From Escherichia coli (GTDB lineage: Bacteria > Pseudomonadota > Gammaproteobacteria > Enterobacterales > Enterobacteriaceae), in assembly GCF_024298765.1 (NCBI RefSeq), contig NZ_CP101210.1: a DNA stretch of 64,000 nt, one strand, 5' to 3'. Each line of letters starts with the position of its first letter. Within the stretch, counting starts at the first letter, position 1. The position numbers were made by a program, and so were the translations under genes. A model generated the notes under the pieces. It had not been told where the DNA came from, made no database searches, and saw nothing but the letters and a program-made list of their open reading frames with translations. Positions 8,844 to 53,067 of this stretch are shown here, piece by piece.

Positions 8844-9701
8844 TCAGTCTAAAACTGCCAGTTTTTCGAGCGTTTCGAAGCCGTAACGCTGTAAAACGGG
8901 CAATAATTGTTCAGCTTCTGGCGTCATTGCCATACAAAAGGCAATATTCGCATCGGCAGATTTTGCATCCGGGGCTTCATGTTCTAACAGCCAGGCCGTT
9001 CGGCGAGCAATCGCTGCGCCAGAATCCACCAGCCGGGTTCCCTCTGGCAGCACCTGTAACAGTTCTTCTTGTAGTAGAGGGAAATGGGTACACCCCAGTA
9101 CAACGGTATCTGGCGGCTCTTTCATTCTTAACCACGGACGCAAGATACGTTTTAGCGCATCCAGAGAAACATCTTCGCCATGCAGCTTCGCTTCAGCCAA
9201 CTCGACCATCTCTGCCGAGCCCAGCATTTCTATCTGGCATTCATTAGCGAAACGCGCGATCAGCTCATGAGTATAAGAACGTTTAACAGTTCCGCGGGTT
9301 GCCAGTAATCCGACAATGCCATTTGCCGTCAGACGTGCAGCAGGTTTAATCGCCGGCACGACACCAACAACCGGGAAGTCGAACTTTTCGCGTAATGCAG
9401 GAAGTGAAACGGTACTGGCGGTGTTGCAAGCGACCACAGCCAGCGCAAGGGGATAACGTTCTTGCACTGCGGTGACAATTGCCACCACTCGCTCAACAAT
9501 AAACTCTTCGCTTTTTTCGCCATACGGGAAAGCGACGTTATCGAAAGCATAAATGTAATGGAGATCCGGTAAGAGATGCCGGATCTCGTCATAGACCGAC
9601 AACCCACCGACGCCGGAGTCAAACACCAGCACGGTGGGACGTGGTTCAGAAGGTGTAGCTGCCAGACAAGGTGTATTCCCGTCCTGCAGTTTGGTAGCCA
9701 T
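8844..9701 (-). CDS. murI: glutamate racemase
   Basis: ORF 8844..9713. The ATG at 9701 gives [37 protein letters not shown]..., 285 aa. An alternative start at 9713 adds MRQS. The 5' end overlaps the btuB 3' end by 56 nt. Confidence 0.93.
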
Positions 9702-11490
9702 AGACTGTCTCATAATCTTTGTCGAACAGGTTGGCTATTTTACCACGAACTGTCAGATGAGAGGTGACCGGATACGCAACCGCAAGATCCCACAAGCTCA
9801 CACCGCCCATTTTGACTGACTTATAGGGCCAGGATGAGTAATCCGAATCGTATCGCGATCCCAGATATTGATAAGTTACACCCCAGTCAAAATCGAACAC
9901 TTGCCAGTCGAGCTGATACTTTACTTGCTGTTTAGGACGACGTTCTAACGGTTTGTCAGTTAAGGCATTTCTGGCATCCGTATAATCGTAGCTAACGGTA
10001 TGCACCAGCGGTCCAGTCTCGAAGTTTGCTGTAGATTCAATACCCTTAATATGCACCTTTGCGTCGTTATAATATCTTTCGCAGTTTTGGGTACAATTAA
10101 TCATATCACTGATATCATTACGGTATCCTGAAATTCGCCAGTTCACTCCTGCTGTTAAGCCTTCAAACGCCCCTTCCCACTGTTTGCTTTTTTCTGGATC
10201 GAGATTCGGATTACCTTTGTAACCATATAACTGACCGAGATTTGGCGCTTTAAATGCAGTTCCATAGGAAGCGATAAAGCGATAGCCTTCAATAAACTCC
10301 CATCCCACACTGGATTGCCATGTTGTGTGGCGATCAAATTGCGAGTTGTCGTCATTACGCACCGCGCCTTCTAACGTAAAATCGCCAACTTTTTGTAATC
10401 CAGTCAGATAAATCCCCGTGTTACGCTGATCGTAACCTTTTGGCAAATATCCAGTTCCAGGAGTAGTGGATTGTTTTTGCCAGTCGATACCAGCTCCAAC
10501 ATCACCGTGACCGACTGTGACGCTATTTGTCCACTGGAGATTGTATTGTTTCATCTCATCCAGGTTAGCTGATGCGTCATAGCGTCCATAATGTGGATCG
10601 TAGTTGTAATCTTTACTATGGCTATAACTGGAAACAAGTTGAGATTGCAGTGTTTCGCCAGCGTAGCGAAGACCCGCATCCCAGCTTTGACTATAAAGTT
10701 TTCGTGTATCAATCAGCGGAGAACCAGGAGAGTACCAGGCGTCATATTTAGTTCGGTTATCATAGCCGTAGCCACGAACAAATCCGCTCCACGTATCAGA
10801 GAAGTTATGTTCAAGTTTGCCGTAGAGTGTTTTACTTAAAAAACCGTCTCTGTCTGACTGTGGCTGCATCCCAGTGTTGCCATAGGCAACGACATCAAAT
10901 CCCCTGGTATAGGCATAATCACCAAGAAGTGTTACTTGAGTATTTTCACCAATTTGTTGCTGAGTGGAAATATCGTAATTTTGATAACTATTACTTCCCC
11001 ATCCGGCTGAAATTTCAGTGCCAGTATTCTCACGGGAGGTAATAATATTTATCACACCGCCAATGGCATCTGAGCCATAAATCGCTGAACGTGGCCCACG
11101 GATATATTCGATACGCTGCACCAAAGCGATCGGAAACTGGCTCAGGTCAGCCGATCCGCTAACACCTGCTAAATTCAGACGTACACCATCAATTAAAACC
11201 AGTGCATGGTTAGAGTTCGTGCCTCGAATAAAAATAGTTGAGAGCTGACCTTCTCCTCCATTTTGTGCAATTGCCACACCAGGCAAACGGCGGAGAACAT
11301 CATTTACAGAGGAAACTTGCCATCGTTCAATATCCTCACGTGTCACGACAGTGACAGGAGCAAGCACGGCACTTAATGGTTCCTGAAAACGGTTAGCAGT
11401 AACAACGAGAGTATCCGGGCTGGTATCCTGTGCCCAAGCAGAAAAAGCTGTGACAGAACACGCCGTCAGCAGCGAAGCTTTTTTAATCAT
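9646..11490 (-). CDS. btuB: TonB-dependent cobalamin outer-membrane transporter (divergent allele)
   Basis: ORF 9646..11535. The ATG at 11490 gives [35 protein letters not shown]... (signal peptide, TonB box DTLVVTA) and a C-terminal ...YTLSGSYTF. It is 614 aa. The central part differs markedly from K-12 BtuB (see findings). Confidence 0.95.
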
Positions 11491-11730
11491 TGTAAAGCAT
11501 CCACAATAGAAGAAGGATGCCGCAGGTTTCATCAATATTACGCGATGATGAGAACCAGATGCGACGTTAGCCGGCAGGTCTTCGGGCTTGGAGGGGTATC
11601 TAAGATACTAAGAGATGATGACTTCCCACCGGATGGCAGTGTCCGCATAACGCAATCATCGCACCTTTCCTTACCGCTGCGCGTCAGCTCCAGATTCGCA
11701 CTGGATTCCCTATTAACTCACAGGACCGGC
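11491..11730 (-). promoter_or_regulatory. cobalamin (AdoCbl) riboswitch / btuB leader
   Basis: The minus strand reads gccggtcctgtgagttaatagggaatccagtgcgaatctggagctgacgcgcagcggtaaggaaaggtgcg... and contains the B12 box agcccgaagacctgccgg (reverse complement of 11571..11588). A leader of about 240 nt directly precedes the btuB ATG. Confidence 0.9.
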
Positions 11731-11858
11731 AAGTGGATGCTACAGGTTGTAACAAGTTACTGTCCAGACGTAGCTCACAAATAGGAATTCATCAAGATCT
11801 GGACATCTGATGAGCAATCCCTACAATCGCCGCGTACTTTAATTTTTCAGGATACATC

Positions 11859-12959
11859 ATGACCCCCGAACACCTTCCAACAGAACAGTATGAAGCGCAG
11901 TTAGCCGAAAAAGTGGTACGTTTGCAAAGTATGATGGCACCGTTTTCTGACCTGGTTCCGGAAGTGTTTCGCTCGCCGGTCAGTCATTATCGGATGCGTG
12001 CGGAGTTCCGCATCTGGCACGATGGCGATGACCTGTACCACATCATTTTCGATCAACAAACCAAAAGTCGTATCCGTGTGGATAGCTTCCCCGCCGCCAG
12101 TGAACTTATCAACCAGTTGATGACGGCGATGATTGCGGGTGTGCGTAATAATCCCATTCTGCGCCACAAGTTGTTCCAGATTGATTACCTCACTACGCTA
12201 AGCAATCAAGCGGTTGTTTCCTTGCTGTACCATAAAAAGCTGGATGATGAGTGGCGTCAGCAGGCGGAAGCCCTGCGCGATGCACTGCGCGCGCAGAATC
12301 TGAATGTGCATCTGATTGGTCGGGCAACGAAAACCAAAATCGAGCTGGACCAGGATTACATCGATGAACGTCTGCCGGTCGCAGGGAAAGAGATGATCTA
12401 CCGTCAGGTAGAAAACAGCTTTACCCAGCCGAACGCGGCGATGAATATTCAGATGCTGGAATGGGCGCTGGACGTAACCAAAGGCTCAAAAGGCGATTTG
12501 CTGGAGCTGTACTGCGGCAACGGTAACTTTTCATTAGCACTGGCGCGCAATTTTGATCGGGTATTAGCCACCGAAATCGCTAAGCCGTCGGTCGCTGCCG
12601 CGCAATACAACATTGCCGCTAACCATATTGATAACGTACAAATTATTCGTATGGCGGCAGAAGAATTTACTCAGGCGATGAATGGCGTACGCGAGTTTAA
12701 CCGCCTGCAAGGAATCGACTTAAAGAGTTATCAGTGCGAAACCATTTTTGTCGACCCACCGCGCAGCGGTCTGGACAGTGAAACCGAGAAAATGGTGCAG
12801 GCGTATCCACGTATTCTGTATATCTCCTGCAATCCGGAAACGTTATGCAAGAATCTGGAAACATTAAGCCAGACGCACAAGGTCGAACGTCTGGCTCTGT
12901 TTGATCAGTTCCCCTACACGCACCATATGGAGTGCGGCGTATTACTGACCGCGAAGTAA
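11859..12959 (+). CDS. trmA: tRNA (uracil54-C5)-methyltransferase
   Basis: 366-aa ORF starting [29 protein letters not shown]..., with a SAM-binding motif [15 protein letters not shown] and catalytic Cys context [11 protein letters not shown]. Confidence 0.96.
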
Positions 12960-16848: not shown

Positions 16849-16891
16849 TTTTATTCTACAGGCCCACAGCAAGAGAGCCTGATAGTAACGG

Positions 16892-18175
16892 TTACTCAAT
16901 CCGATCTTTGACAATAAAGAAGTAACACAGCGCCCCGGTGAACGTCACACAGGCCGCGATAACCAGCGCCAGATTAAACGAGTGTGTGGTATCCACGACC
17001 CAACCGGTTACGATCGGAGCAAAGGAAGCAAAAACAAAACTGCCAAAGTTTTGAATCCCGGCGATGGAAGCCACTTTTGTTTCTGACACCATCACCTGCA
17101 CCAGCCCCCATGCAGATGTTCCCGCGAAATGCACGCAGAACAGCGCCATTGAGATAAACGCTACCGCCTGGGCTGGCGAGGAAGATTGCACGACCAGCAA
17201 CGTGCCTAATGCCGACATCATCAAACCGCAGACAATCGCCGTTTTACGCGTCTTCGCCAGGTCATAGCCTTTTTTCGCCAGCCGATCGACAACAATACCG
17301 TTAACCCACATCCCGACCGCCGCCGCGAGGAAAGGAATTGCCGCCACCCAACCGGTTTTCGCCAGACTGAAACCTTGTTCGGCCTGCAAATAACCGGGTA
17401 ACCACGCGATGTAGAGCCAACCGGTATAATTGACGCCAGAGAAACCTAAAATCATCCCCCAGGTTGTCCGATGCTTAAACAGCGCCAGCCACTCGCTAAA
17501 TTGTAACTGTGGACGCGGTTTAACCGGCGCGGAGAGATATGTCCGTTCTTCCTCGGTCAGGACAAACTGCGCCCGGTTGCGATACCACGCGTACCAACAG
17601 ATCCCAACCAGAATCCCTGCTACGCCGATGATGACAAACATCGTCCGCCAGCCCCATGCCAGTTGCATCAATACAAGAGCAGGAGGCGCGATAGCCTGAC
17701 CGATAACGGTAGATGAGTTAAAAATCCCCAGCGCCGTGCCGCGTTCTTTTTGCGCATACCAGTCGGTGATCGACTTTACTCCCGCAGGCATAAATGGCGC
17801 TTCGCCAATACCCAGACCGATACGCATTAAAATAAAGTGGCTAAAAGAATTAACCATTCCTGTTAATGCCTGCATTAATGACCAGAATATTAAGCCTGCG
17901 CCTAACACTATTCGTGGGCCAAAGCGGTCTAGCAAAATACCGGAAGGAAGTTGTGAAAAACCATAAGACAGAGAAAATGCAGAAAGCAAAACACCAAACT
18001 CGGTAGCGGATAATCCTAACTCGCCACGAATTGCTTCACCTGCCACGCTCAATGACGAACGGTCGAGAAAATTAACGATCCCCGCCATAAATAATAAAAC
18101 CAGGGTCACTGTCTGAATACGACGAATCCGTTGCGGTTTATTACCCGCAACACTGGTTGACACATCAACGTCCAT
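16892..18175 (-). CDS. MFS transporter, anion:cation symporter (hexuronate/aldonate/glucarate-type) family
   Basis: 427-aa ORF with about 12 hydrophobic segments and MFS motifs (GILLDRFGPR, IGLGIGEAPFMPA). RBS aaggag lies 6 nt upstream of the ATG. It has no K-12 counterpart at this locus. Confidence 0.85.
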   Translation of the reverse strand: MDVDVSTSVAGNKPQRIRRIQTVTLVLLFMAGIVNFLDRSSLSVAGEAIRGELGLSATEFGVLLSAFSLSYGFSQLPSGILLDRFGPRIVLGAGLIFWSLMQALTGMVNSFSHFILMRIGLGIGEAPFMPAGVKSITDWYAQKERGTALGIFNSSTVIGQAIAPPALVLMQLAWGWRTMFVIIGVAGILVGICWYAWYRNRAQFVLTEEERTYLSAPVKPRPQLQFSEWLALFKHRTTWGMILGFSGVNYTGWLYIAWLPGYLQAEQGFSLAKTGWVAAIPFLAAAVGMWVNGIVVDRLAKKGYDLAKTRKTAIVCGLMMSALGTLLVVQSSSPAQAVAFISMALFCVHFAGTSAWGLVQVMVSETKVASIAGIQNFGSFVFASFAPIVTGWVVDTTHSFNLALVIAACVTFTGALCYFFIVKDRIE

Positions 18176-18241
18176 TTTTAGCTCCTTGAGCGGAATTAAT
18201 CGATTTGATGAATATTCAGAAAATAATTAAGCGAACCGCTA

Positions 18242-19456
18242 TTACCAGTTCCACAATGTGCCATCTTCCAGTCGTGCGACGGGGAGATACGCCGGGTCAT
18301 ACGGATATTTCGCCGCCAGTTTCTCATCGAAAGAAATACCCAGCCCCGGTTCATCGCCTGGGTGCATATAACCTTCATCGAAGCGCCAGCTATGCGGGAA
18401 GACTTCAAGCATTTGTTCGGAATAGCCCATGTACTCCTGAACGCCAAAGTTTGGCACCCAGAGGTCAAAATGCAGCGCCGCCGCATGGCAAACAGGCGAT
18501 AAATCTGAAGGGCCATGCGAACCGGTACGTACCTGATAAAGCGATGCAAAATCGGCAATCCGTCGCATCCCGGTAATGCCGCCTGCATGGGTAATCGTCG
18601 TGCGAATATAGTCAATCAGCTGCTCTTCGATTAACTGCTTGCAGTCCCAGATACTGTTAAACACTTCACCGACCGCAATCGGCGTCACGGTATGCTGACG
18701 AATCAGACGAAAACATTCCTGATTCTCGGCAGGCGTCGGATCTTCCATCCAGAACAGGCGGTAATCTTCAATGCTCTTCCCAAAGCGCGCCGCTTCGATG
18801 GGGGTCAGGCGATGGTGCATGTCATGCAACAGATGTTCGTTAAAACCGAACTTATTACGCACCGCTTCAAATAACTTCGGCGTAAAATCGAGATACTTTT
18901 CTGAAGACCACAACTGCTCTTCTGGCCACAGGCCTTTGGTTGCTGGTTCATACGCCAGTCCTTTGCCCTTCGCCAGACCATAGGTGGTTTGCATACCCGG
19001 TACACCACACTGCACACGAATCGCCTTAAAGCCCATCTGCTGGTGCTTTGCATAGTCTTCAAGGACTTCATCAATCGTACGCCCGGTGGTGTGGCAATAA
19101 ACCATAACGCCTTCACGAGAAGCACCACCAAGCAGTTGATACAATGGCATATTTGCCGCTTTTGCTTTGATATCCCACAACGCCATATCAATGGCAGAAA
19201 TGGCTGACATCGTGACGGGGCCACGTCGCCAGTAAGCACCTTTATAAAAGAATTGCCAGATATCTTCGATACGGCTGGCATCGCGGCCAATTAGTTGTGG
19301 ACAAAGATGATCTTTCAGATAAGAAGCGACCGACAATTCGCGACCATTTAACGTGGCATCTCCTAATCCACAAAGTCCGCTTGCAGTGGTTATTTTAAGC
19401 GTAACGAAATTACGCCCTGGGCAAGTAACAAAAACATCTGCAGCAATAATTTTCAT
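18242..19456 (-). CDS. enolase-superfamily dehydratase, D-mannonate dehydratase (ManD)/RspA-like
   Basis: ORF 18242..19516. The ATG at 19456, preceded by aggag, gives [47 protein letters not shown]..., 404 aa. It is near-colinear with, and highly similar to, E. coli RspA as I recall it. The upstream 20 codons lack support. Confidence 0.88.
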
Positions 19457-19859
19457 TATTGCAATCTCCTGTGTTGTAAATAGACGTTTCAAACTTAATT
19501 TTGCGCCTACTACCATACAAGAGAGAAAGAGCGATTATTCAACCATGATCACATTAAAAATAAAAATTTCTACCGAGGAGAAAAAACACCCTCAAAAACC
19601 ACCTGAATAATTAGCTATCATCGTTAAAACAACACGTTAAATAATCACATAACAAACTCCATTAATCATTAAAAATGAACACAGCAATAGAAATGAATTA
19701 TATTCAATTAATTAAAGTATGTATTGGCTGATGTATTGAAAATATAATTTTTATGGGGAGAGTGAAGGTAAAGAAGACGCAAGAATAAAAAGGAATGTGA
19801 CAAATAATGGTTCTGGTTGGGCGTTAAATTTAAGGTCACCAGAATACTGACAAATTTCT

Positions 19860-19918
19860 GCCTGATGCGGCGTAAACGCCTTATCCGCCTACGAAGTGTC
19901 GCACTTTGTAGGCGTGGT
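19860..19918. repeat. REP (repetitive extragenic palindrome) element(s)
   Basis: gcctgatgcggcgtaaacgccttatccgcctac followed by ...tgtaggcg. This is the typical REP consensus (GCCTGATGCG...CTTATC...CCTAC). Confidence 0.8.
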
Positions 19919-19920
19919 AA

Positions 19921-19941
19921 GCTCCCCATTTTCAGGGGAGC
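19921..19941 (-). terminator. argH terminator hairpin
   Basis: The minus strand reads gctcccctgaaaatggggagc, lying 13 nt after the argH stop. Confidence 0.6.
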
Positions 19942-19953
19942 AATATAAACAAA

Positions 19954-21327
19954 CTACTCTAACCGAGCTTGCGCAAAAGCAATCGCCTGCGCCACCTGCT
20001 GCGGTGAGACGCCGCCTTTTGCAGCACGCTTGTCGAGGCACGATTGCAGCGACAGAATCGGATAGACATCTTCGCCAATCACCTGGCTGAATTTCTGCAA
20101 CTCACTGAGCGGCAGATCTTCCAACGCTTTGCCCTGACGAATGGCTTCCACCACAGCTTCACCCACAATATGGTGCGCCTCGCGGAACGGTACGCCTTTC
20201 GCCACCAGATAATCCGCCAGTTCAGTAGCGTTGGCGTAACCCTGCTGCGCCGCTTCCTGGCAACGCGGACGTTTCACCTGAATGCCGTCCAGCACCAGCG
20301 CCGCCATATGCAGGCAGTCCAGCCAGGTATCGAGCGCGTCGAACAGACCTTCTTTGTCTTCCTGCATATCTTTGTTGTAAGCCAGCGGCAAACCTTTCAG
20401 CGTCATCATCATGCCGGTTAACGCCCCCTGCACCCGACCGCATTTACCGCGAATCAGCTCCAGCGCATCCGGGTTTTTCTTCTGCGGCATTAATGATGAA
20501 CCGGAAGTCACACGGTCAGAAAGCTCCACAAACCCCGCTTCGCCGGTGTTAAAGAAAATCAGATCTTCAGCAAAACGCGACAGATGCACCATGCCGATAG
20601 CGGCAGCAGAAAGCAGTTCCAACACATGGTCACGGTCAGAAACGCTGTCGAGACTGTTACGGGTCGCCGAAGCAAAGCCCAGCCAGCCTGCTAACTGTTC
20701 ACGGTCGATTTCATAGGCCGTTCCTGCCAGTGCGCCACAGCCTAGCGGGCTGACATCCAGACGCTTAAGCGCGTCCTGCAAACGGCTTTCATCACGCGCC
20801 AGCATCTCAACGTAGGCCAGGCACCAGTGAGCGAACGTCACCGGCTGGGCGCGTTGCAGGTGAGTGTAACCCGGCATCACCGCGTCCTGATTGTTCTGCG
20901 CGGTCTCGACCAGAGCGGATTGTAACTGCCGGTTAGCCGTCAGCAACTCGCTAACGGTATCTTTGCACCACAGTTTCAGGTCAGTTGCTACCTGATCATT
21001 ACGGCTACGCCCGGTATGCAGTTTTTTGCCTAACTGACCCACTTTGTCGATCAGTTTGCCTTCCACCCAGCTATGGATATCTTCGGCGTCGCTTTCAAGG
21101 ATTTGTTGTGGCCTGGCGCGAACATCTTCCAGCAGCACGTTCAGCGCCTCTTCCAGTTGCGCCTGCTCTTCTGCGGTTAACACGCCGACCGTTACCAGGG
21201 CTTTGGACCAGGCCACAGAGCCAACAATATCCTGCTCCGCCAGACGGTAATCAAAGCGCAGTGAGTCGTTGAATTGTTTGAACCGTTGATCTGCTGCCTG
21301 GGTAAAACGCCCGCCCCAAAGTGCCAT
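19954..21327 (-). CDS. argH: argininosuccinate lyase
   Basis: 457-aa ORF starting [37 protein letters not shown]..., with the fumarate-lyase signature [12 protein letters not shown]. Confidence 0.97.
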
Positions 21328-38183: not shown

Positions 38184-38846
38184 ATGGAACTGTATCTGGA
38201 CACCGCTAACGTCGCAGAAGTCGAACGTCTGGCACGCATATTCCCGATTGCCGGGGTGACAACTAACCCGAGCATTATCGCTGCCAGCAAGGAGTCCATC
38301 TGGGAAGTGCTGCCGCGCCTTCAAAAAGCGATCGGTGATGAGGGAATTCTGTTTGCTCAGACCATGAGCCGCGACGCGCAGGGTATGGTGAAAGAAGCGA
38401 AACGCCTGCGCGACGCTATTCCGGGCATTGTGGTTAAAATTCCGGTAACCTCTGAAGGTCTGGCAGCAATTAAAATGCTGAAGAAAGAAGGCATTACTAC
38501 GCTGGGAACCGCAGTGTACAGCGCAGCGCAAGGATTACTGGCGGCGCTGGCTGGAGCCAAATACGTTGCTCCATACGTTAACCGCGTAGATGCCCAGGGC
38601 GGTGACGGCATTCGTACTGTACAGGAGCTGCAAGCGCTGTTGGAAATGCATGCGCCAGAAAGCATGGTGCTGGCTGCCAGCTTTAAAACACCACGTCAGG
38701 CGCTGGACTGTTTACTGGCAGGATGTGAATCCATCACCCTGCCCTTAGATGTAGCGCAACAAATGCTCAACACCCCTGCGGTAGAGTCAGCTATAGAGAA
38801 GTTCGAACACGACTGGAATGCCGCATTTGGCACTACTCATCTCTAA
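38184..38846 (+). CDS. fsaB: fructose-6-phosphate aldolase 2
   Basis: 220-aa ORF starting [33 protein letters not shown]..., with the transaldolase-like fold Schiff-base lysine context VVKIPVT. Confidence 0.94.
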
Positions 38847-45356: not shown

Positions 45357-45659
45357 AAGGAAAAGCCGAAGGGCGTCAACCGAAAAATAACCAATGATGG
45401 TGAGGAAAAATCAGGGAAGATGAAAAAAACTCATCTTAATTAGAGGCGATAAAAGATTTCTCTATAGCACAATCCACCTCGCACGTTTTGACTCATATTC
45501 TGACAACACAGCGACACCTGGGCTAATTCGAAAAACAACGTCCTGCCACCGGATGGTGATGCTAAGGCATCTGATTCGGCCTGCGCCCTCGCGTAGGCCG
45601 AATACAGGATCTGCGCAATCAACGGGTAACAAACAGTTGAGTCAATTCAGTGCGCACTT

Positions 45660-47213
45660 TTATTTGATATCCTTCACGCGCATACCGTTGAGCTGTTCAT
45701 CCGTAATGGTGTTGCCCGCTTTGAAGTAATCAACCACCGCGTGATAAACGTAATAACCGCCCGTTGTGTTACGCGCTTTCCCTTCGGTAAAGGCGGTAAA
45801 ACCATCTCCACCATCAGCAAGGAAACTCTGAGTAGCAATGTGATAAACCGTCGCATCTTCAATGGGTTTGCCATTCAGAGCCAGTGTGATTACCCGCTGA
45901 CCAACCGGCTTGCTGCTGTCGTACTTCATTTCCAGGCCTTTCGATACCTGTAAAACGCCATTGCTTAAACTTGCGCCGTGTTCCATCAGACTGCGTAATT
46001 GTTTACCCGTGAGTTCCATCGTCACCAGTTCGTTGGGGAACGGGAACGTACTGATGACGCCGCCCATCGTGATCGCCCCTGCGGGGATCTCATTGCGAAT
46101 GCCGCCAGAGTTGGTTAACGCCAATTGGGTGTTTTTACCCGCCGCTACCAGTAAAGCGTCAGCCGCCAGGTTCCCGAGGGAAGCCGATTCACCATAGGCA
46201 CGTTTTAATTCAACCGGCGATTGCGCCACCGTTTGTTGCACCACTTCATCAAGCTTTTTATTCCAGCCGTCGATCACCTGTTTCGTTTGTGGATCGGGCT
46301 TCCACTCGTCAGCGTAAATGGTTTTAAGCTCGAAGTTTTTCACCGTAAAATTATGCGGCTTCTCTTTGTAGTCGAGAACCAGTTTGCCCACATCAATCCC
46401 GCCGCTGTCAGTGGAGAGGATGAGCGTATTGCCGACTTTAATCGGTTCCGGCGTACCCACATGTGCATGTCCGGTGATCAAAATATCCAGCCCTTTCACC
46501 TGACTTGCCGTCTGAATATCTTTATCCAGCGCGCGACGCACATCTGTGCCTCCCATACTGGACTGGCGGGCCGGAACACCTTCATGGATCAGGGCGACGG
46601 TCAAATCAACCTTGCCTTTAAGTTCATCGATATAACGTTGTAGCCATTTAATTTCATCACGCGCCTCAATACCCACTCGCGTGGCAGCAGATACTGTGTC
46701 ATTAAAGGCAAATACACCGTGCAAACCTATAACGCCTATTTTCACACCGTCTTTTTCGATGATGGTATAGGGCTTATCCCAGAATGATTTACTGCTGTTC
46801 TGATAAAAAACATTGCCCTGCACAATCGGGAATTTTGCCTGACTCAACTGTAATAATGTGTTGTCCCAGCCGTGGTCAAATTCATGGTTGCCTATCGTGA
46901 CGGCATCAAACGGCATAGTATTCATAATATCGATAATAGCCTTACCTTTGGTCAGGCTGCTGATATATGGCCCGGTAAAATAGTCGCCCGCATCAAAAAA
47001 CCATGTCGCTTTATTTTTTGCTTTTTCTTGCTTAACCAGCGTAGTGATATTTGCCCAGCCGCCAATATCCCGTTTACCGTCAGCGATCCACGGCACTTTA
47101 TAAGGTTCTACATGCGCATGGAGGTCGTTGGTATAAATAATAGTGACATCTTTAGCGCAAGCCCAGAACGGCAGTGTTAATGCGATACCCGCAGCAAGTA
47201 TTTTAATTTTCAT
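45660..47213 (-). CDS. secreted metallophosphoesterase / 5'-nucleotidase-family protein, paralogue A
   Basis: ORF 45660..47219; the track start is a TTG codon. The ATG at 47213 (RBS aaggga, 6-nt spacer) gives [34 protein letters not shown]..., 517 aa. It has a signal peptide and the motifs NDLH, GDYFTG, GNHEFD, HEG and GHAH, plus a 5'-nucleotidase C-terminal-type domain (NSGGIR, STFPFPN). Confidence 0.88.
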
Positions 47214-47272
47214 AAACAATCCCTTTCAGTGAGATAAAGGATTGCTACATTACGTTCTGAAAGACTTATTTA

Positions 47273-47288
47273 TGTGAGAGTAATCACA
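47273..47288. promoter_or_regulatory. perfect CRP-consensus palindrome TGTGA-N6-TCACA
   Basis: tgtgagagtaatcaca read directly. It is centred in the 132-bp divergent region between paralogue A and the Zn-ribbon ORF. A TAATGT hexamer on the minus strand (47247..47252) would put the site near -41.5 for paralogue A. Confidence 0.6.
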
Positions 47289-47345
47289 TCTGCAGGGGAT
47301 AGTTGCCGGACAAAATCAACGACCTTGTGAAATCGTTGGTGATAT

Positions 47346-48470
47346 ATGTCGACTCTGTTTACGATTAATGCCTGTAAAACGTTCGGTTGCCGAAATTTGG
47401 GATTGGCCTCATCGGAAGATTACAGTTGGCCAGACTATAAACTGGGTTATCCGGCACTGCACTGTCGGGCATGTGGCAGTTACCCGCCGTTGTTTGACGA
47501 GCAACAATTTCGTGACTGGTTGTCAGTTCACTTATCTACGTGGGCCTCGGAGAAGGGTCATTTCTGCCCGGTATGTTATGGCACAGACATGATTTGTTAT
47601 GGTCACAATCCACAGGGTTCGCAACGCATTCAATGCCGTAACTGCAAAAAAGTCTGGACGCCTAAACAGTATCAGAAAGAAATTACGCATCCCCAGGCCA
47701 TTGAAACCGTTCAACTGTTCATACCCTTTCAAGGGGCCAGCGCAGTACAAAAACTGTATGTTTTAGTCAGTCTTGACGCCACTCGTGGCAACATTCTTCA
47801 TCTCTCCACGAATTATACGCAACATCAGACAGGAGACAGTCTGCGGTACAGTTACAAGGGCAACACAGAACCAACTATGCACCATCGCGATATCGTGCAG
47901 AAGGTAGATATGCGTGAAGCGCAATTCTTGCGCCGGAGCCAGTTCGATGAAATTCAGTATGGCAGTGCTGTACTCAAGCGCAACGGTAAGGGAGCCATAC
48001 TACGCCCGGTTATCACGGCACACGGGCATTTCAGAATACTGAAAATCCGCTATCCAGATGTCAAAACGCATATTATTTCACACGAATGTTTTCTAAGAGG
48101 CGCAATTATTACAGCCTGGGCAGATCAGTTCCGCCAACAACAAGGTGAACTTTGGTTCGTAGAAGAAGAAATCAGTGACAGTAACGCTGATACGCCCTGG
48201 CATTTTAAGGGAACGACATACCATGGTTGGTGGCAAAATCAGTGGCAGCGCTGGGAGCAGGGGAATAACTGCAAGATGGTCTGCCTACTCACGGGAGCCA
48301 GCTTAGAAAGGGGCGCAAATGTTTCTCTGGCAACCAGTCGTTGTTTTATCACATGGCTGACAGACCAACACGACTTTACCCAAAGCGCGTTATTATCCGC
48401 AGGTCGCGTAACGCAAATGCTGACCTCACTGGCGTTAAAATACAATGAATCGCTCACTCCATCTTGTTAG
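47346..48470 (+). CDS. hypothetical protein with two N-terminal zinc ribbons (second one IS1 InsA-like)
   Basis: 374-aa ORF with an ATG start. Cys pairs are C10/C15 + C40/C43 and C74/C77 + C97/C100 (CPVCYGTDMICYGHNPQGSQRIQCRNCKKVW). The C-terminal roughly 270 aa has no motif I can place, apart from a W/Q-rich patch HGWWQNQWQRWEQ. Confidence 0.7.
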   Translation: MSTLFTINACKTFGCRNLGLASSEDYSWPDYKLGYPALHCRACGSYPPLFDEQQFRDWLSVHLSTWASEKGHFCPVCYGTDMICYGHNPQGSQRIQCRNCKKVWTPKQYQKEITHPQAIETVQLFIPFQGASAVQKLYVLVSLDATRGNILHLSTNYTQHQTGDSLRYSYKGNTEPTMHHRDIVQKVDMREAQFLRRSQFDEIQYGSAVLKRNGKGAILRPVITAHGHFRILKIRYPDVKTHIISHECFLRGAIITAWADQFRQQQGELWFVEEEISDSNADTPWHFKGTTYHGWWQNQWQRWEQGNNCKMVCLLTGASLERGANVSLATSRCFITWLTDQHDFTQSALLSAGRVTQMLTSLALKYNESLTPSC

Positions 48471-48542
48471 TCAATACACTCGACAAACGACCATAAATTA
48501 AGAGAGATCACTACCTTTCATTTAATTAAATATATAAATGTA

Positions 48543-48567
48543 TGACCGTGAAATATAATCATGGTCA
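48543..48567. promoter_or_regulatory. inverted repeat TGACCGTGA-N7-TCATGGTCA (candidate operator)
   Basis: Read directly. The arms are 9 bp with one mismatch. It lies in the 229-bp A+T-rich region upstream of paralogue B. Confidence 0.35.
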
Positions 48568-48589
48568 ATGTTTAATTAATAACATTATT

Positions 48590-48605
48590 TGTTACTAAGA
48601 TCACA
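48590..48605. promoter_or_regulatory. CRP-like site TGTTA-N6-TCACA
   Basis: tgttactaagatcaca has one mismatch to the TGTGA-N6-TCACA core. It lies about 100 bp upstream of the paralogue B start. Confidence 0.4.
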
Positions 48606-48702
48606 TAATACTTTTCTGAACTATGCTTACATAAAATAAGACACGATGTGCCTTTTATTTAAATAATTCAACAAATGTAACACACCCTATCCAGGAGGGA
48701 TG

Positions 48703-50253
48703 ATGAAAACTGTATTTACAACATTATCAGTCATATTCGGCGTGATATTTTCTCACAGTGTTCTAGCTCAGGACGTTACTATTTATTATACGAATGACAT
48801 TCACGCACATGTCAATCCGGCAAAAATCCTCGCTGTTGATAAGAACAGACTTATAGGTGGTATGGCTAATATTGCAGGCATCGTTAATGAAGCGAAGAAA
48901 AAAAGCAAAGATGTGTTTTTCTTTGATGCAGGCGACTATTTTACCGGGCCGTATATCAGCACCCTGACCAAAGGTGAAGCTATTATTGATATCATGAACA
49001 CTATGCCCTTTGATGCGGTGTCTGTTGGTAATCACGAGTTCGATCACGGTGTGCCCAATATGGTGTCTCAGTTATCAAAAGCAAAATTTCCCATTCTGCT
49101 GGGAAATATCTACTACACCGATACGAATAAACCAGTTTGGGATCATCCGTGGACCATTATCGAAAAAGATGGTTTAAAGATTGGTGTGATTGGATTGCAT
49201 GGCGCATTCGCTTTCTATGATACAGTCGCGGCAAAAGCACGTGAAGGCGTAGAAGCCAGAGACGAAATTAAATATTTAAATAAAGCACTTGCAGAATTAA
49301 AAGGCAAAGTCGACATTACCGTTTTGCTAATTCACGAAGGTGTCCCGGCGCGTCAATCAAGCTTTGGTAGTAAAGATGTGGAGCGGCTACTACAGGCAGA
49401 TATTGAGACAGCTAAAAAAGTGAATGGTGTTGATGTCTTAATTACCGGTCACGCACATGTCGGAACACCGCAACCAATAAAAGTTAATAACACATTAATT
49501 GTATCTACCGATGCATACGGCACCAACATCGGAAAACTTGTGCTTGATTACAATCCGAAAACGAAGAAAATTGATAGTTATAATGGTGAGTTAATCACCA
49601 TCTTTGCAGATCAATTTAAACCTGACACCATCGTTCAAAATACTATTGATAAATGGAGTGCAAAGCTTAACAAAATAACACAGGAAGTTGTCGGCCATTC
49701 TCCCGTAGTTTTAACACGTGAGTATGGTAGTTCCTCTTCTACCGGCAACCTTATTCTTGATGCAATGATGGAAAAAACACCTGATGCCGTTGCCGGATTT
49801 CAAAATAGCGGTGGGATTCGAGCTGATTTTCCTAAAGGCGATATCACACTGGGAGATGTTATTAGCACATTCCCCTTTAATAATGACCTCATCGAGATGG
49901 ATTTGACGGGCCGCGATCTCAAATCATTGATGACGCATGCAACCAATCTAACTAACGGTGTGTTACAAGTTTCTAAAAGTGTTGCGGTTGTCTATGACAG
50001 CAAAAAACCCCTCAACCAACGGTTAATCTCTTTCACCATTAACGGCAAACCTGTGGAAGATAATCAAACATATCGTATTGCCACGCACTCCTTTTGTGCC
50101 AGTGGTGGTGACGGTTTTGAAGCATTTTTGAATGGAAAAAATGTGAAGACGATACCGGGAACAACCTCGGCGGAATCTATCATCGATTATTTCAAAAATC
50201 ATAAACCTGTCACCCCAGACTTAACTAAACGAGTCATGGACGTCGCCAAATAA
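48703..50253 (+). CDS. secreted metallophosphoesterase / 5'-nucleotidase-family protein, paralogue B
   Basis: ORF 48700..50253. RBS aggagg at 48693..48698 favours the second ATG (48703). Protein starts MKTVFTTLSVIFGVIFSHSVLAQDVTIYYTNDIHAH... It has a signal peptide, the same metallophosphoesterase motif series, and NSGGIR / STFPFNN in the C-terminal domain. Confidence 0.88.
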   Translation: MKTVFTTLSVIFGVIFSHSVLAQDVTIYYTNDIHAHVNPAKILAVDKNRLIGGMANIAGIVNEAKKKSKDVFFFDAGDYFTGPYISTLTKGEAIIDIMNTMPFDAVSVGNHEFDHGVPNMVSQLSKAKFPILLGNIYYTDTNKPVWDHPWTIIEKDGLKIGVIGLHGAFAFYDTVAAKAREGVEARDEIKYLNKALAELKGKVDITVLLIHEGVPARQSSFGSKDVERLLQADIETAKKVNGVDVLITGHAHVGTPQPIKVNNTLIVSTDAYGTNIGKLVLDYNPKTKKIDSYNGELITIFADQFKPDTIVQNTIDKWSAKLNKITQEVVGHSPVVLTREYGSSSSTGNLILDAMMEKTPDAVAGFQNSGGIRADFPKGDITLGDVISTFPFNNDLIEMDLTGRDLKSLMTHATNLTNGVLQVSKSVAVVYDSKKPLNQRLISFTINGKPVEDNQTYRIATHSFCASGGDGFEAFLNGKNVKTIPGTTSAESIIDYFKNHKPVTPDLTKRVMDVAK

Positions 50254-50293
50254 AATCTCATTTATCAGTCAATTTATTTAACAAGGAATGCGA

Positions 50294-51913
50294 ATGAAAA
50301 CAGCGCAGCGTACTTTATTTGCCGCAACATTGCTGACTATTTTTTCGACCTCAGTTATGGCGCAGGATGTCACGATTATTTATACCAATGATCTTCACGC
50401 CCATGTGGATTCCTATAAAGTACCATATGTCGCAGACGGAAAACGCGACATTGGTGGCTTTGCCAATATATCTACGTTAGTAAAACAAGAGAAAGCCAAA
50501 AATAAAGCCACTTTTTATTTTGATGCTGGAGACTATTTCACCGGGCCATATATCAGTAGCCTGACAAAGGGCGAAGCAATAATTGATATTATGAATACCA
50601 TGCCTTTTGACGCAGTATCAATCGGTAATCATGAGTTTGACCATGGCTGGGATAATGCCCTCCGACAATTAAGCAAAGCGAATTTCCCTGTTTTATTAGG
50701 CAATGTTTATCATAAAGAGAGTGAGAAACCCTTCTGGAACAAGCCCTACACCATCCTGGAAAAAGATGGCATCAGGATTGGTATTGTTGGGCTACACGGC
50801 GTATTTGCATTTAATGACACGGTCTCGGAGCTCTCTCTCCAGGGACTCGATAATGACAATAATAACCGATTTGATAAATCTTCCGCGACCCTCAAGAATC
50901 AGGGGATTGAAGCACGTGATGAAGTAAAGTATTTGCAGCATTATATCGACGAGTTACGTGATAAGGTTGACCTCACCGTGGCGCTGGTTCATGAAGGCGT
51001 ACCGGCGCGTCAGTCCAGCATTGGCAATACAGATGTTAGACGTGCGCTGGATAAAGATATTCAAACCGCAAGCAAGGTGAAAGGATTGGATATTCTGATT
51101 ACCGGGCATGCCCACGTCGGAACGCCAGAACCAATCAAAGTCGGCAACACCTTAATCCTTTCGACTGACAGTGGCGGTATCGATATTGGTAAATTAATCC
51201 TTGATGTCAACCCTACAGCTCGTACTCATAAAGTGAAGAGCTTTGAGCTGAAAACGGTTTATGCCGATGAATGGATACCCGATCCAACCACACAAAAAGT
51301 TATCAATGGCTGGAATAAAAAACTGGCGGATCTTGTACGCCAACCAGTCGGTGAATCATCGATTGCATTAACTCGTGCCTACGGTGAGTCATCGCAACTT
51401 GGCAACCTGTTTACCGATGCAATGCTTGTCGCTGCACCGACTGCACAAATTGCGTTGATAAACTCCGGCAGTTTACGTGCTGATATAAATGCAGGCACGA
51501 TTACCTTTGGTGACATTACCAGTACATTCCCCTTCAAGAATGAACTTACTGAAATGGATCTCAGCGGTAAGGATCTGCGTAACCTACTGGAACACGGGGC
51601 ATCGCTTACCAATGGCATCCTGCAAATGTCAAAAGGCGCAGAAATGCGCTATACCCTGCAGAAACCAGTAGGTCAGCGCATTGTATCTTTTAAAATTAAT
51701 GGTGAAGAGATCGTTGATACGAATATTTACCATGTTGCGACTACGACTTTCCTTGCACTTGGGGGCGATGGTTTTCTGGCATTCAAAGAAGGGAAAAATG
51801 TCCAGGTCCGCGCCGGAAATAACATGTCCAATGTCGTAATCGATTATTTTAAGAAAGGCCACAAGATTACTCCTGCACAGGTAAATGAAATGCGGGTAGA
51901 AGTAAGCAAATAA
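50294..51913 (+). CDS. secreted metallophosphoesterase / 5'-nucleotidase-family protein, paralogue C (with 20-aa net insertion)
   Basis: ORF 50288..51913. RBS aagga at 50283..50287 favours the ATG at 50294. Protein starts [37 protein letters not shown]... It has the same motif series and is closest to paralogue A. Confidence 0.88.
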   Translation: MKTAQRTLFAATLLTIFSTSVMAQDVTIIYTNDLHAHVDSYKVPYVADGKRDIGGFANISTLVKQEKAKNKATFYFDAGDYFTGPYISSLTKGEAIIDIMNTMPFDAVSIGNHEFDHGWDNALRQLSKANFPVLLGNVYHKESEKPFWNKPYTILEKDGIRIGIVGLHGVFAFNDTVSELSLQGLDNDNNNRFDKSSATLKNQGIEARDEVKYLQHYIDELRDKVDLTVALVHEGVPARQSSIGNTDVRRALDKDIQTASKVKGLDILITGHAHVGTPEPIKVGNTLILSTDSGGIDIGKLILDVNPTARTHKVKSFELKTVYADEWIPDPTTQKVINGWNKKLADLVRQPVGESSIALTRAYGESSQLGNLFTDAMLVAAPTAQIALINSGSLRADINAGTITFGDITSTFPFKNELTEMDLSGKDLRNLLEHGASLTNGILQMSKGAEMRYTLQKPVGQRIVSFKINGEEIVDTNIYHVATTTFLALGGDGFLAFKEGKNVQVRAGNNMSNVVIDYFKKGHKITPAQVNEMRVEVSK

Positions 51914-51989
51914 CAAAAACTTATAATACCATTCATTCACTGGATGACATTATTTCTCTCTAAATCAACAATATATAAGAGATATATTT

Positions 51990-52850
51990 ATGTATATAAA
52001 AAAGCACTGGATAGCTTTATCCATTCTATTAATACCTTGCATTGGAAACGCTCAGGAAATTAAAATTGATGAAAGCTGGTTACATCAAAGCTTGAATGTC
52101 ATTGGTCGCACAGACTCTCGCTTTGGCCCAAGACTGACTAACGACCTCTACCCTGAATATACTGTAGCAGGAAGAAAAGACTGGTTTGATTTTTATGGTT
52201 ATGTTGATCTACCAAAATTCTTTGGCGTCGGCAGTCACTATGATGTTGGGATCTGGGATGAGGGCTCACCACTATTTACGGAAATAGAACCTCGGTTTTC
52301 CATTGACAAATTGACCGGATTAAATCTTGCGTTCGGCCCATTTAAAGAATGGTTCATTGCAAACAACTATGTCTATGATATGGGTGACAACCAGTCATCC
52401 CGGCAAAGTACATGGTATATGGGGCTTGGTACAGATATCGACACGGGTCTACCAATTAAGCTTTCTGCCAATATATACGCCAAGTATCAGTGGCAAAACT
52501 ATGGTGCCGCTAATGAAAATGAATGGGACGGATATCGATTCAAAATAAAATATAGCATCCCTCTTACAAATTTATTCGGAGGGCGATTGGTATACAATAG
52601 TTTTACTAACTTTGATTTTGGCTCCGATCTTGCGGACAAGTCACACAATAATAAACGAACCAGTAATGCTATTGCTTCAAGCCATATCCTTTCCCTTCTA
52701 TATGAACACTGGAAATTTGCATTTACACTACGTTATTTTCACAACGGTGGACAATGGAATGCGGGAGAGAAGGTTAACTTCGGAGATGGTCCATTTGAAT
52801 TGAAAAATACAGGATGGGGAACCTATACTACTATTGGTTATCAATTTTAA
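51990..52850 (+). CDS. Tsx-family nucleoside-specific outer-membrane channel paralogue
   Basis: 286-aa ORF with a signal peptide ([23 protein letters not shown]). Long blocks are shared with E. coli Tsx as I recall it ([84 protein letters not shown]). It has a C-terminal aromatic residue ...IGYQF. Confidence 0.9.
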
Positions 52851-53027
52851 ATTAGGTGACATTTTAGATATTGTTACTTAATGTCATTTTGTAATTGTCA
52901 TTAATAACTTCACCATTCACTCTGTTACTTCATCGCTCAACACAAAAGCCCCCTTATTACCGGGGGCACTGACCAAAGGCAAAATGACAATCAATCACCA
53001 CTTCCCCAGGAAGAGGTTTAGGGGTGA

Positions 53028-53058
53028 CAACAAAAGCTGGCAACTGCCAGCTTTTGTT
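53028..53058. terminator. metL terminator (bidirectional-looking hairpin)
   Basis: aacaaaagctggca-a-ctgccagcttttgtt has A/T runs on both sides and lies 10 nt after the metL stop. Confidence 0.75.
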
Positions 53059-53067
53059 CAATAATCA

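Follow-up and report, generated by a model that had tools for sequence, protein, structure and literature searches.

BtuB, the cobalamin transporter of the outer membrane, is usually treated as an invariant receptor of Escherichia coli, on which colicins E1-E9 and A dock, as do BF23 and other T5-like phages. The btuB allele in a stretch of 64,000 nucleotides from an E. coli genome (contig NZ_CP101210.1, assembly GCF_024298765.1; this whole stretch is called the window below) raises the question of how a gene at its usual place, between its usual neighbours, has come to differ so strongly from its K-12 counterpart. A preliminary description, made from the letters of the window, had proposed a mosaic btuB with an imported internal segment in K-12-like flanks. 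We find that the interior of the gene differs from K-12 at 26.1% of its positions, whereas the DNA around it differs at 1.9%, and we consider it likely that this interior was brought in by recombination from a deeply divergent btuB family, complete genes of which are carried by a pathogenicity island.

A divergent block in an ordinary locus

The btuB open reading frame (ORF) occupies positions 9646-11490 of the window on the minus strand, stop codon included. It starts with MIKKASLL and encodes an intact protein of 614 amino acids, and its length and position are those annotated in K-12 and in strain 104. Against K-12, 416 of the 1845 nucleotides differ, without any indels, and 410 of these differences fall within gene nucleotides 106-1677, i.e. 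codons 36-559 (window 9814-11385, minus strand; 410 of 1572 positions). This block spans 1.57 kb, or about 85% of the ORF; we refer to it and its relatives as the D-family, or D-type. The limits proposed earlier, 9817-11385, are correct to within 3 nt. In the 3846 nt around the block there are 74 differences, and the inside and the outside differ with a Fisher p of 1e-159.

The same picture is obtained when the window is divided into 300-nt bins. The 172 bins that can be aligned to K-12 (about 52 kb) have a median of 7 differences; the counts in the btuB bins are 70-83, and outside them no bin exceeds 37. In other words, the btuB interior is the most divergent segment of the alignable window, about twofold above the next bin. 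Given these counts and the step from 1.9% to 26.1%, the flanks are ordinary E. coli DNA, about 2% from K-12, and the btuB interior is a gross outlier. The proposal that the divergence is far above the usual intraspecies level is thus borne out; the allele is not at least 98% identical to the common E. coli alleles, and its flanks do not share its divergence.

At the protein level 104 of the 614 residues differ from K-12 (83.1% identity), with no change in residues 1-35 or in the last 56. The preliminary description had both ends right, as well as the rate of about one changed residue in six between them; the window peptides that it cited are all present where it had placed them, and the K-12 strings it gave are correct. 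An artefact of assembly or a chimera can be dismissed: 79 independent complete genomes have an interior at least 99% identical to this one, and strain 104 matches the window over 19.8 kb with 99.97% identity.

The synonymous sites tell how deep the divergence is. Between the block and K-12 the proportion of differing synonymous sites (pS) is 0.77, i.e. saturated, and that of nonsynonymous sites (pN) is 0.113, which gives a pN/pS of about 0.15; the pS between K-12 and Salmonella is 0.71. The block is also compositionally foreign: its GC content is 44.7% and its GC content at third codon positions (GC3) is 0.376, against 50.2% and 0.510 in the K-12 allele and 50.7% GC in the flanks. All the chromosomal btuB orthologs that were retrieved have a GC3 of at least 0.44, and those within the Enterobacteriaceae at least 0.49. 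The sharp limits, the saturated synonymous sites and the shift in base composition agree with the earlier suggestion that an internal segment was imported. Since the substitutions are widespread and pN/pS is about 0.15, most of the divergence is best seen as inheritance from a distant donor, and there is no evidence in it of adaptation. On these grounds we read the block as old foreign DNA and not as the product of fast local evolution.

The gene order trmA-riboswitch-btuB-murI is the K-12 arrangement. The flanking genes, annotated as in K-12 and strain 104, are both E. coli-type: trmA (11859-12959, plus strand) has 0-9 differences per 100 nt from K-12, and murI (glutamate racemase; 8844-9701, minus strand) diverges by 1-2% and overlaps the last 56 nt of btuB (9646-9701). 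The btuB leader contains an E. coli-type cobalamin riboswitch (11556-11745, minus strand; Rfam RF00174, 87.8 bits). Over 300 nt this leader is 99.3% identical to that of K-12. The K-12-like character assigned earlier to the riboswitch leader and the neighbouring genes is borne out.

Neither the riboswitch nor the first 105 nt of the ORF was replaced. An attenuator in the early coding sequence (CDS), at +18..+48, and a site for OmrA within the first 81 nt of the btuB CDS have been described (PMC11162775), and both fall into this native part. The +81..+210 region, implicated in Rho-dependent termination (PMC11162775), is mostly replaced in the window allele, and its C content drops from 33% to 25%. 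The TonB box DTLVVTA (residues 26-32, gene nt 76-96) is the same as in K-12 and belongs to the native 5' segment. We note in passing a synonymous single-nucleotide polymorphism at window position 11446 (gene nt 45) that is private to the window: all 60 listed carriers of the allele and the fully aligned strains 104, D10 and 22AR0750 differ there.

Relatives of the block

In DNA the block shares about 74% identity with K-12, with E. albertii, E. ruysiae, E. whittamii and Escherichia sp. E1V33, with Salmonella and with Citrobacter, and about 67% with Enterobacter. The K-12-type allele, by comparison, is 92-96% identical to the btuB genes of the same four Escherichia and about 78% identical to those of Salmonella and Citrobacter. 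In a neighbour-joining tree of the block region, the window block, GF47, ws5-3, M121 (strain ECNB21-M121) and an island copy described below form a D clade with 100% bootstrap support. This clade lies inside the Escherichia-Salmonella-Citrobacter group (100%) and outside the clade of K-12-type Escherichia (100%); its placement among the three genera is left unresolved by the tree. The earlier idea that the substitutions resemble Salmonella or Citrobacter and point to an import from there does not hold: because the D clade is separate at 100% bootstrap and the identities to K-12, Salmonella and Citrobacter are equal, at about 74%, we rule out both genera as donors.

Apart from other E. coli alleles, the only known close relative of the block lies on an island. 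In 69 complete genomes, mostly Shiga toxin-producing E. coli without the LEE locus, a second btuB is present, with about 89% identity to the block. In the two genomes and one metagenome contig that were examined, the order on the island is porin-sulfatase-riboswitch-btuB-iha; this context of btuB on the LAA/LPA pathogenicity island has been described (PMC6920203; PMC9729726). On the island the D-type gene is complete: it has a leader of its own (68% identical to that of K-12, and 68-69% to that of the window), a different signal peptide and a D-type 3' end. It encodes 614 amino acids and, without indels, is 89% identical to the window block in DNA and 90% in protein. Its GC3 is 0.355, and the neighbouring LAA genes have 40-43% GC. 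An insertion sequence fragment cuts the DNA about 14 nt past the btuB stop codon, leaving only about 23 codons of murI. We considered this murI remnant as a means of placing the donor and discarded it as too short.

The island btuB and the window allele are thus alike in their deep lineage (100% bootstrap), their low GC3, their length and their lack of indels. They differ in that the island holds an additional gene, with a riboswitch, signal peptide and D-type 3' end of its own, whereas the window allele stands at trmA-btuB-murI; the window copy is not on the island but at the native locus, with an E. coli-type leader and E. coli-type ends. Along the gene the similarity of the two is patchy, about 83% in nt 120-360 (the 5' third) and about 96% in nt 600-1200. 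As the island copy is not the direct donor (see below) and the similarity is patchy, there is a pool of D-type variants that recombine among themselves.

Searches for a closer relative found no sequence at least 90% identical to the block outside E. coli in the collections searched. No donor was found among 185,579 GTDB species representatives in a pattern-limited scan. The same was true of a collection of 5.8 billion proteins, in which all clusters with at least 90% identity are labelled E. coli and the next best are Salmonella (84%) and the K-12 type (83%). In the JGI metagenomes a degenerate pattern specific to the D-family gave no donor and one match, which is the LAA island copy. Plasmids gave no donor either, the best matches being about 75% identical. 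Several of the PLSDB records that match btuB (e.g. NZ_CP019203.1) are chromosomal fragments carrying oxyR-sthA-fabR-trmA-btuB-murI, or whole chromosomes labelled as plasmids.

A third BtuB lineage, labelled E. coli, was seen among the matches (P0008/P0012, signal peptide MKTQILILL...). It shares 74-77% identity with the window protein and stands nearer to the K-12 type. The metagenome contigs that carry P0008 (L047-L049) have a Rep3 replicon, an integrase, btuCD-like ABC transporter genes, a LysR regulator and genes of a B12-dependent glutamate mutase. Judged by its gene content, this looks like a mobile module for the uptake and use of B12.

Crossover junctions and conserved gene ends

The island copy makes it possible to delimit the junctions on both sides. 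The 5' end of the ORF (11386-11490, minus strand), which holds the signal peptide, the TonB box and the attenuator/OmrA region, is E. coli-type, with 5 of 105 nt different from K-12; most of the 5'-end variants of the window recur in E. coli alleles that are K-12-like over the rest of btuB. The native 3' end (gene nt 1678-1845; 9646-9813, minus strand), including the overlap with murI, has 1 difference in 168 nt. At gene nt 70-74 the window is E. coli-type and the island copy differs, and from nt 106 on the window is D-type. The 5' crossover interval is therefore gene nt 75-105 (31 nt; 11386-11416, minus strand), which overlaps the codons of the TonB box. On the other side the last D-specific base is nt 1677, and nt 1695 is where the window first lacks a base specific to the island copy, so that the 3' crossover interval is gene nt 1678-1694 (17 nt; 9797-9813, minus strand).

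It is conspicuous that both intervals coincide with runs of identity between the D-type (or island-type) gene and K-12, i.e. nt 88-105 (18 nt) and nt 1678-1694 (17 nt), which are among the longest such runs in the gene. In general, conservation is higher at the two gene ends, where identity between the island copy and K-12 is 81-88%, against 74% inside. This higher conservation, with the 17-18-nt identical runs, explains why the crossovers landed at the ends. The last 168 nt of btuB are also 91-98% identical between K-12 and Salmonella, against 78% in the block region. The additional constraint that the preliminary description had ascribed to the murI overlap is supported by these values, and identity in the overlap region drops to 84% in the island copy, which has a truncated murI.

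Distribution in E. coli

A query with the interior alone matched 162 of 5,426 complete E. coli genomes: 79 with at least 99% identity, 12 with 90-99%, and the 69 with about 89% that hold the island copies. With a query that spans the junctions, counted by its identity bands, 90 genomes matched with at least 95% identity, which confirms the number at the native locus. By the two queries the carriers at the native locus number 90-91 of 5,426, or about 1.7%, and all eight native-type records that were inspected have the allele at trmA-btuB-murI. The carriers fall on at least four flank haplotypes that are 1.5-2% apart; their blocks differ by 0-5% and share the same limits of dense divergence. Ordinary recombination within the species, as we read this pattern, has since carried the allele from one E. 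coli lineage to another. Of the 60 listed carriers about 40 come from poultry, including avian pathogenic E. coli (APEC) O78:H4 and APEC O2-211; this is a raw count with uncontrolled sampling bias.

Two further records deserve mention. In strain IH5 (NZ_CP168949.1) there is a region of many truncated, unrelated gene fragments, among them a 633-nt piece 99% identical to the btuB block of the window; this scrambled region (match coverage 41%) is most likely a misassembly. The btuB of strain 06-00048 is mostly K-12-type, with 75 differences in small patches (e.g. at gene nt ~1200-1320), a pattern which suggests that smaller mosaic patches also occur in btuB.

A nested patch and extracellular loop 8

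The block itself does not have a single history. When the window allele is compared with the ws5-3 type, pS is 0.43 in codons 401-461, 0.92 in extracellular loop 8 (L8) and 0.36 in codons 479-500, and 0.06 and 0.03 in the rest of the block. Over codons ~401-500 the ws5-3, M121 and island sequences agree with each other. Because synonymous divergence is high there and these three agree, the patch (gene nt ~1201-1500; 9991-10290, minus strand), which covers strands 13-16 and loops L7 and L8, is a second import from a third D-type variant and not a local adaptation. A protein-database search for its donor with the 112-aa patch alone gave fragments only.

L8 lies at 10057-10107 (minus strand), precursor residues 462-478 or mature residues 442-458 by the published loop limits (PMC7360065); mature numbering, set by alignment to the crystal-structure sequence 1NQE, is precursor numbering minus 20. 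In this loop 11 of 17 residues differ from K-12. The pN of L8 is about 0.3, and the synonymous sites of the patch are saturated. All four cobalamin contacts that simulations name for L8 (PMC7360065) are replaced: Y446C, D447T, D448Q and H449N. The motif is C-T-Q-N-C, with cysteine codons at 10093-10095 and 10081-10083. The two cysteines introduced by the replaced loop, already pointed out in the preliminary description, are precursor C466 and C470 (mature 446 and 450), and they are the only two of the mature window protein; mature K-12 BtuB has none, and BtuB is a standard Cys-less model in transporter biophysics. The tip of L8 is hypervariable across the Enterobacteriaceae, and among about 149 full-length homologs a C-x-x-x-C is present only in this E. 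coli allele. In L8 the window allele is thus unlike the island btuB. Small disulfide-closed loops occur in other TonB-dependent transporters, e.g. FhuA and FepA, and it is plausible that the C-x-x-x-C could form a disulfide.

Origin of the block

With the recombinant structure, age, composition, relatives and distribution of the block established, we can ask where it came from. We consider a xenologous allelic replacement likely, in which the interior of the resident btuB was exchanged for a D-family segment, supplied most likely by a mobile paralog or by the organism from which that paralog came. Homologous recombination would have put the deeply divergent, AT-rich segment in the place of gene nt ~106-1677 in the chromosomal copy, with the crossovers falling in the short, better-conserved gene ends and their 17-18-nt runs common to the D-type and the E. 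coli-type. The promoter, the riboswitch, the signal peptide, the TonB box and the 3' end that overlaps murI would have stayed native. A later and smaller exchange (codons ~401-500) would then have brought in the other version of L8 from a third D-family variant, and the allele would have spread among E. coli lineages. The source was most likely a btuB paralog borne by a mobile element, or the same organism that had supplied this paralog. The mobile paralog is the most economical source, because the D-family is island-like in composition, is known as a complete gene only from an island, and shares homology with the native locus over the btuB leader and ORF only. We infer that the direction was from the island or paralog to the native locus.

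Several observations weigh against this reconstruction. The island copy is not the direct donor: its synonymous divergence (dS) from the window allele is 0.40, a value like that between E. coli and E. albertii. The searches brought up no donor genome or element whose block reaches 95% identity, so that the assignment of the source rests on relatives and composition, and the low GC3 could equally come from an unsampled, AT-richer enterobacterium. Moreover, M121 carries further non-K-12 variants a little beyond the limits of the common block (nt 93, 1696, 1698, 1710 and 1779); therefore there was either more than one import or a slightly wider original tract that was trimmed later.

A serious rival, which we regard as possible, is that the block was imported directly from the chromosome of such an unsampled, AT-richer relative of Escherichia, Salmonella and Citrobacter, through transduction or conjugation and then homologous recombination, with no part played by a mobile btuB paralog, and that the LAA island acquired its copy independently from the same organism. 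The D clade is a fourth deep branch within the group of these three genera, the ~23 murI codons behind the island btuB suggest that it was captured from a chromosomal btuB-murI locus, and the diversity of the D-family (dS 0.40, three sub-variants) is like that of the gene pool of a species or genus. Yet no such organism turned up among the 185,579 species representatives (with the limits of the pattern used), the 5.8 billion proteins or the JGI metagenomes, and no sampled member of the group has a btuB with GC3 below 0.49. The junctions speak against it as well, since a syntenic donor would permit crossovers anywhere in trmA or murI and both lie inside btuB.

The remaining explanations do without an outside donor. 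If two classes of btuB alleles had been held in Escherichia as an ancient balanced polymorphism, by frequency-dependent selection through phages and colicins, one would expect an allele on several E. coli backgrounds at a low frequency, as is the case here (~1.7%), and the hypervariability of L8 across the family would also fit. We nevertheless find this very unlikely, as the divergence equals or exceeds the distance between E. coli and Salmonella, E. albertii, E. ruysiae, E. whittamii and Escherichia sp. E1V33 are all K-12-type (92-96%), the 13-point shift in GC3 indicates a long residence in another mutational background, and the junctions within the ORF are sharp. Divergence in place, by rapid positive selection or local hypermutation under phage or colicin pressure, would suit a known phage and colicin receptor and the pN of about 0.3 in L8. 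It is refuted by the synonymous sites, which are saturated (pS 0.77) at a pN/pS of 0.15 and are saturated even in the L8 patch; the plug and the transmembrane strands are as diverged as most of the loops, and the neighbouring DNA is only 1.9% from K-12. We give it next to no credence. Replacement by a D-family segment, from a mobile paralog or its source organism, therefore remains the reading we prefer.

Protein surface and inferred function

The window BtuB passes the NCBIfam equivalog models over its full length, NF007926 with 1078 bits (cutoff 836) and TIGR01779 with 874 bits (cutoff 600), and its precomputed Pfam domains are Plug and TonB_dep_Rec. It aligns without gaps, end to end, with the 1NQE sequence (83% identity). 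The aspartates of L2 (179, 193, 195) and L3 (230, 241), which we take to be the Ca cage residues, are all conserved. About 30 of the 41 cobalamin contacts listed for BtuB (PMC7360065) are conserved as well; seven show mild changes, six of them conservative and the seventh N228K, and the remaining four are the replaced contacts of L8. Because the equivalog scores are high, the TonB box, the L2/L3 aspartates and most B12 contacts are kept, and pN/pS is 0.15, the window allele is probably a working TonB- and Ca-dependent cobalamin transporter.

An AlphaFold model built from 45 sequences has strand segments that fit a 22-strand barrel, at low confidence (mean pLDDT 52, plug below 50), and was used for the order of the strands and the periplasmic turns only; a model from the single sequence (pLDDT 29) was unusable. 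Residues were assigned to plug, strands and loops by the published loop boundaries (PMC7360065). On this assignment 19% of the plug, 16% of the strands and 27% of the extracellular loops are substituted relative to K-12 (odds ratio for the loops 1.7, p = 0.02); the corresponding values between K-12 and Salmonella are 12%, 14% and 16%.

The outer surface of the window BtuB is probably remodelled, and the sensitivity to BtuB-dependent phages and colicins may change with it. The sites of B12 and of the ColE9 R-domain on BtuB overlap substantially (PMC8561637), and L8 adjoins them; residue-level lists of the contacts of colicins and phages on BtuB were not found in the literature searched. Receptor escape, proposed earlier as the driver of the allele, is plausible, but the main signal in the data is purifying selection acting on a sequence of distant origin. 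Two points tell against a picture of a remodelled surface with uptake intact. The excess of substitutions in the loops comes largely from L8 and is otherwise weak. Furthermore, B12 binding is reported to drop strongly, without being lost, on partial deletion of L7, L8, L9 and L11 (PMC7360065); since partial deletions of L8 have this effect and all four L8 contacts are changed, the affinity for B12 may be affected. A broader scenario is one in which island paralogs act as a reservoir that converts the receptor gene, and in which an L8 stapled by a disulfide keeps B12 uptake, lets the cell escape colicins and T5-like phages and so helps the allele to spread in poultry E. coli; taken as a whole we find it doubtful.

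Other features of the window

Relative to K-12 the window has a 7.6-kb insertion between metL and metF (45429-53068). It contains three 5'-nucleotidase paralogs (45660-47219, minus strand; 48700-50253 and 50288-51913, plus strand), an unassigned ORF of 374 amino acids (47346-48470) and a Tsx-like nucleoside channel (51990-52850), and from these genes it looks like an accessory nucleotide-scavenging module. A second insertion, of 3.1 kb, lies between oxyR and argH (16853-19954); in the near-identical strain 104 it is annotated with the D-mannonate dehydratase ManD and a transporter of the major facilitator superfamily. The second most divergent 300-nt bin, at 38292-38591, has 37 differences from K-12 (12%) and maps by coordinates to roughly the border of fsa and ptsP, where it may mark a further small patch of recombination.

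Comparison with known systems and significance

Intragenic mosaicism is established in E. coli for fhuA, lamB, ompA, ompC and ompF (bioRxiv 10.1101/2021.09.21.461324). Those genes keep a conserved chromosomal locus, recombine internally, vary in the extracellular loops to which phages bind and retain their global fold and transport (bioRxiv 10.1101/2021.09.21.461324). The window btuB resembles them in this, with transport probably retained. It differs from them in scale: in the described cases small hypervariable patches are shuffled among E. coli alleles, and btuB is not among the genes, whereas here 85% of the ORF is replaced by a segment that is about 26% divergent and compositionally foreign. 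Only the L8 patch fits the classical pattern. For a mosaic receptor allele it is unusual that nearly the whole gene is involved, that the divergence is of genus level and that there is a link to a paralog on a pathogenicity island. We found no description of divergent btuB alleles at the native locus in the literature searched.

Compared with K-12 BtuB as known from its structures (1NQE, 1NQH, 1UJW, 2YSU, 2GSK, 7NSU), the protein of the window has the same length, TonB box and L2/L3 aspartates and, going by the gapless alignment and the low-confidence model, probably the same layout of plug and 22 strands; it differs by its 104 substitutions, its altered L8 (11 of 17 residues) and its two mature cysteines. 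The mobilised btuB genes on the Rep3 contigs (P0008/P0012) likewise stand for btuB on mobile DNA, but as additional copies, whereas the window shows a replacement inside the resident gene. Mobile B12 transporters are also reported in Bacteroides (PMC8759732).

A natural allele with 17% of its residues changed and a rebuilt L8, present in about 1.7% of the complete genomes, bears on the prediction of phage host range and on biocontrol with colicins. It is also a natural experiment on which surface loops are needed for B12 uptake. Finally, the kinship with the LAA/LPA copy ties a cargo gene of a virulence island to variation at a core locus, and it raises the idea that island paralogs may feed receptor diversity into the chromosome.

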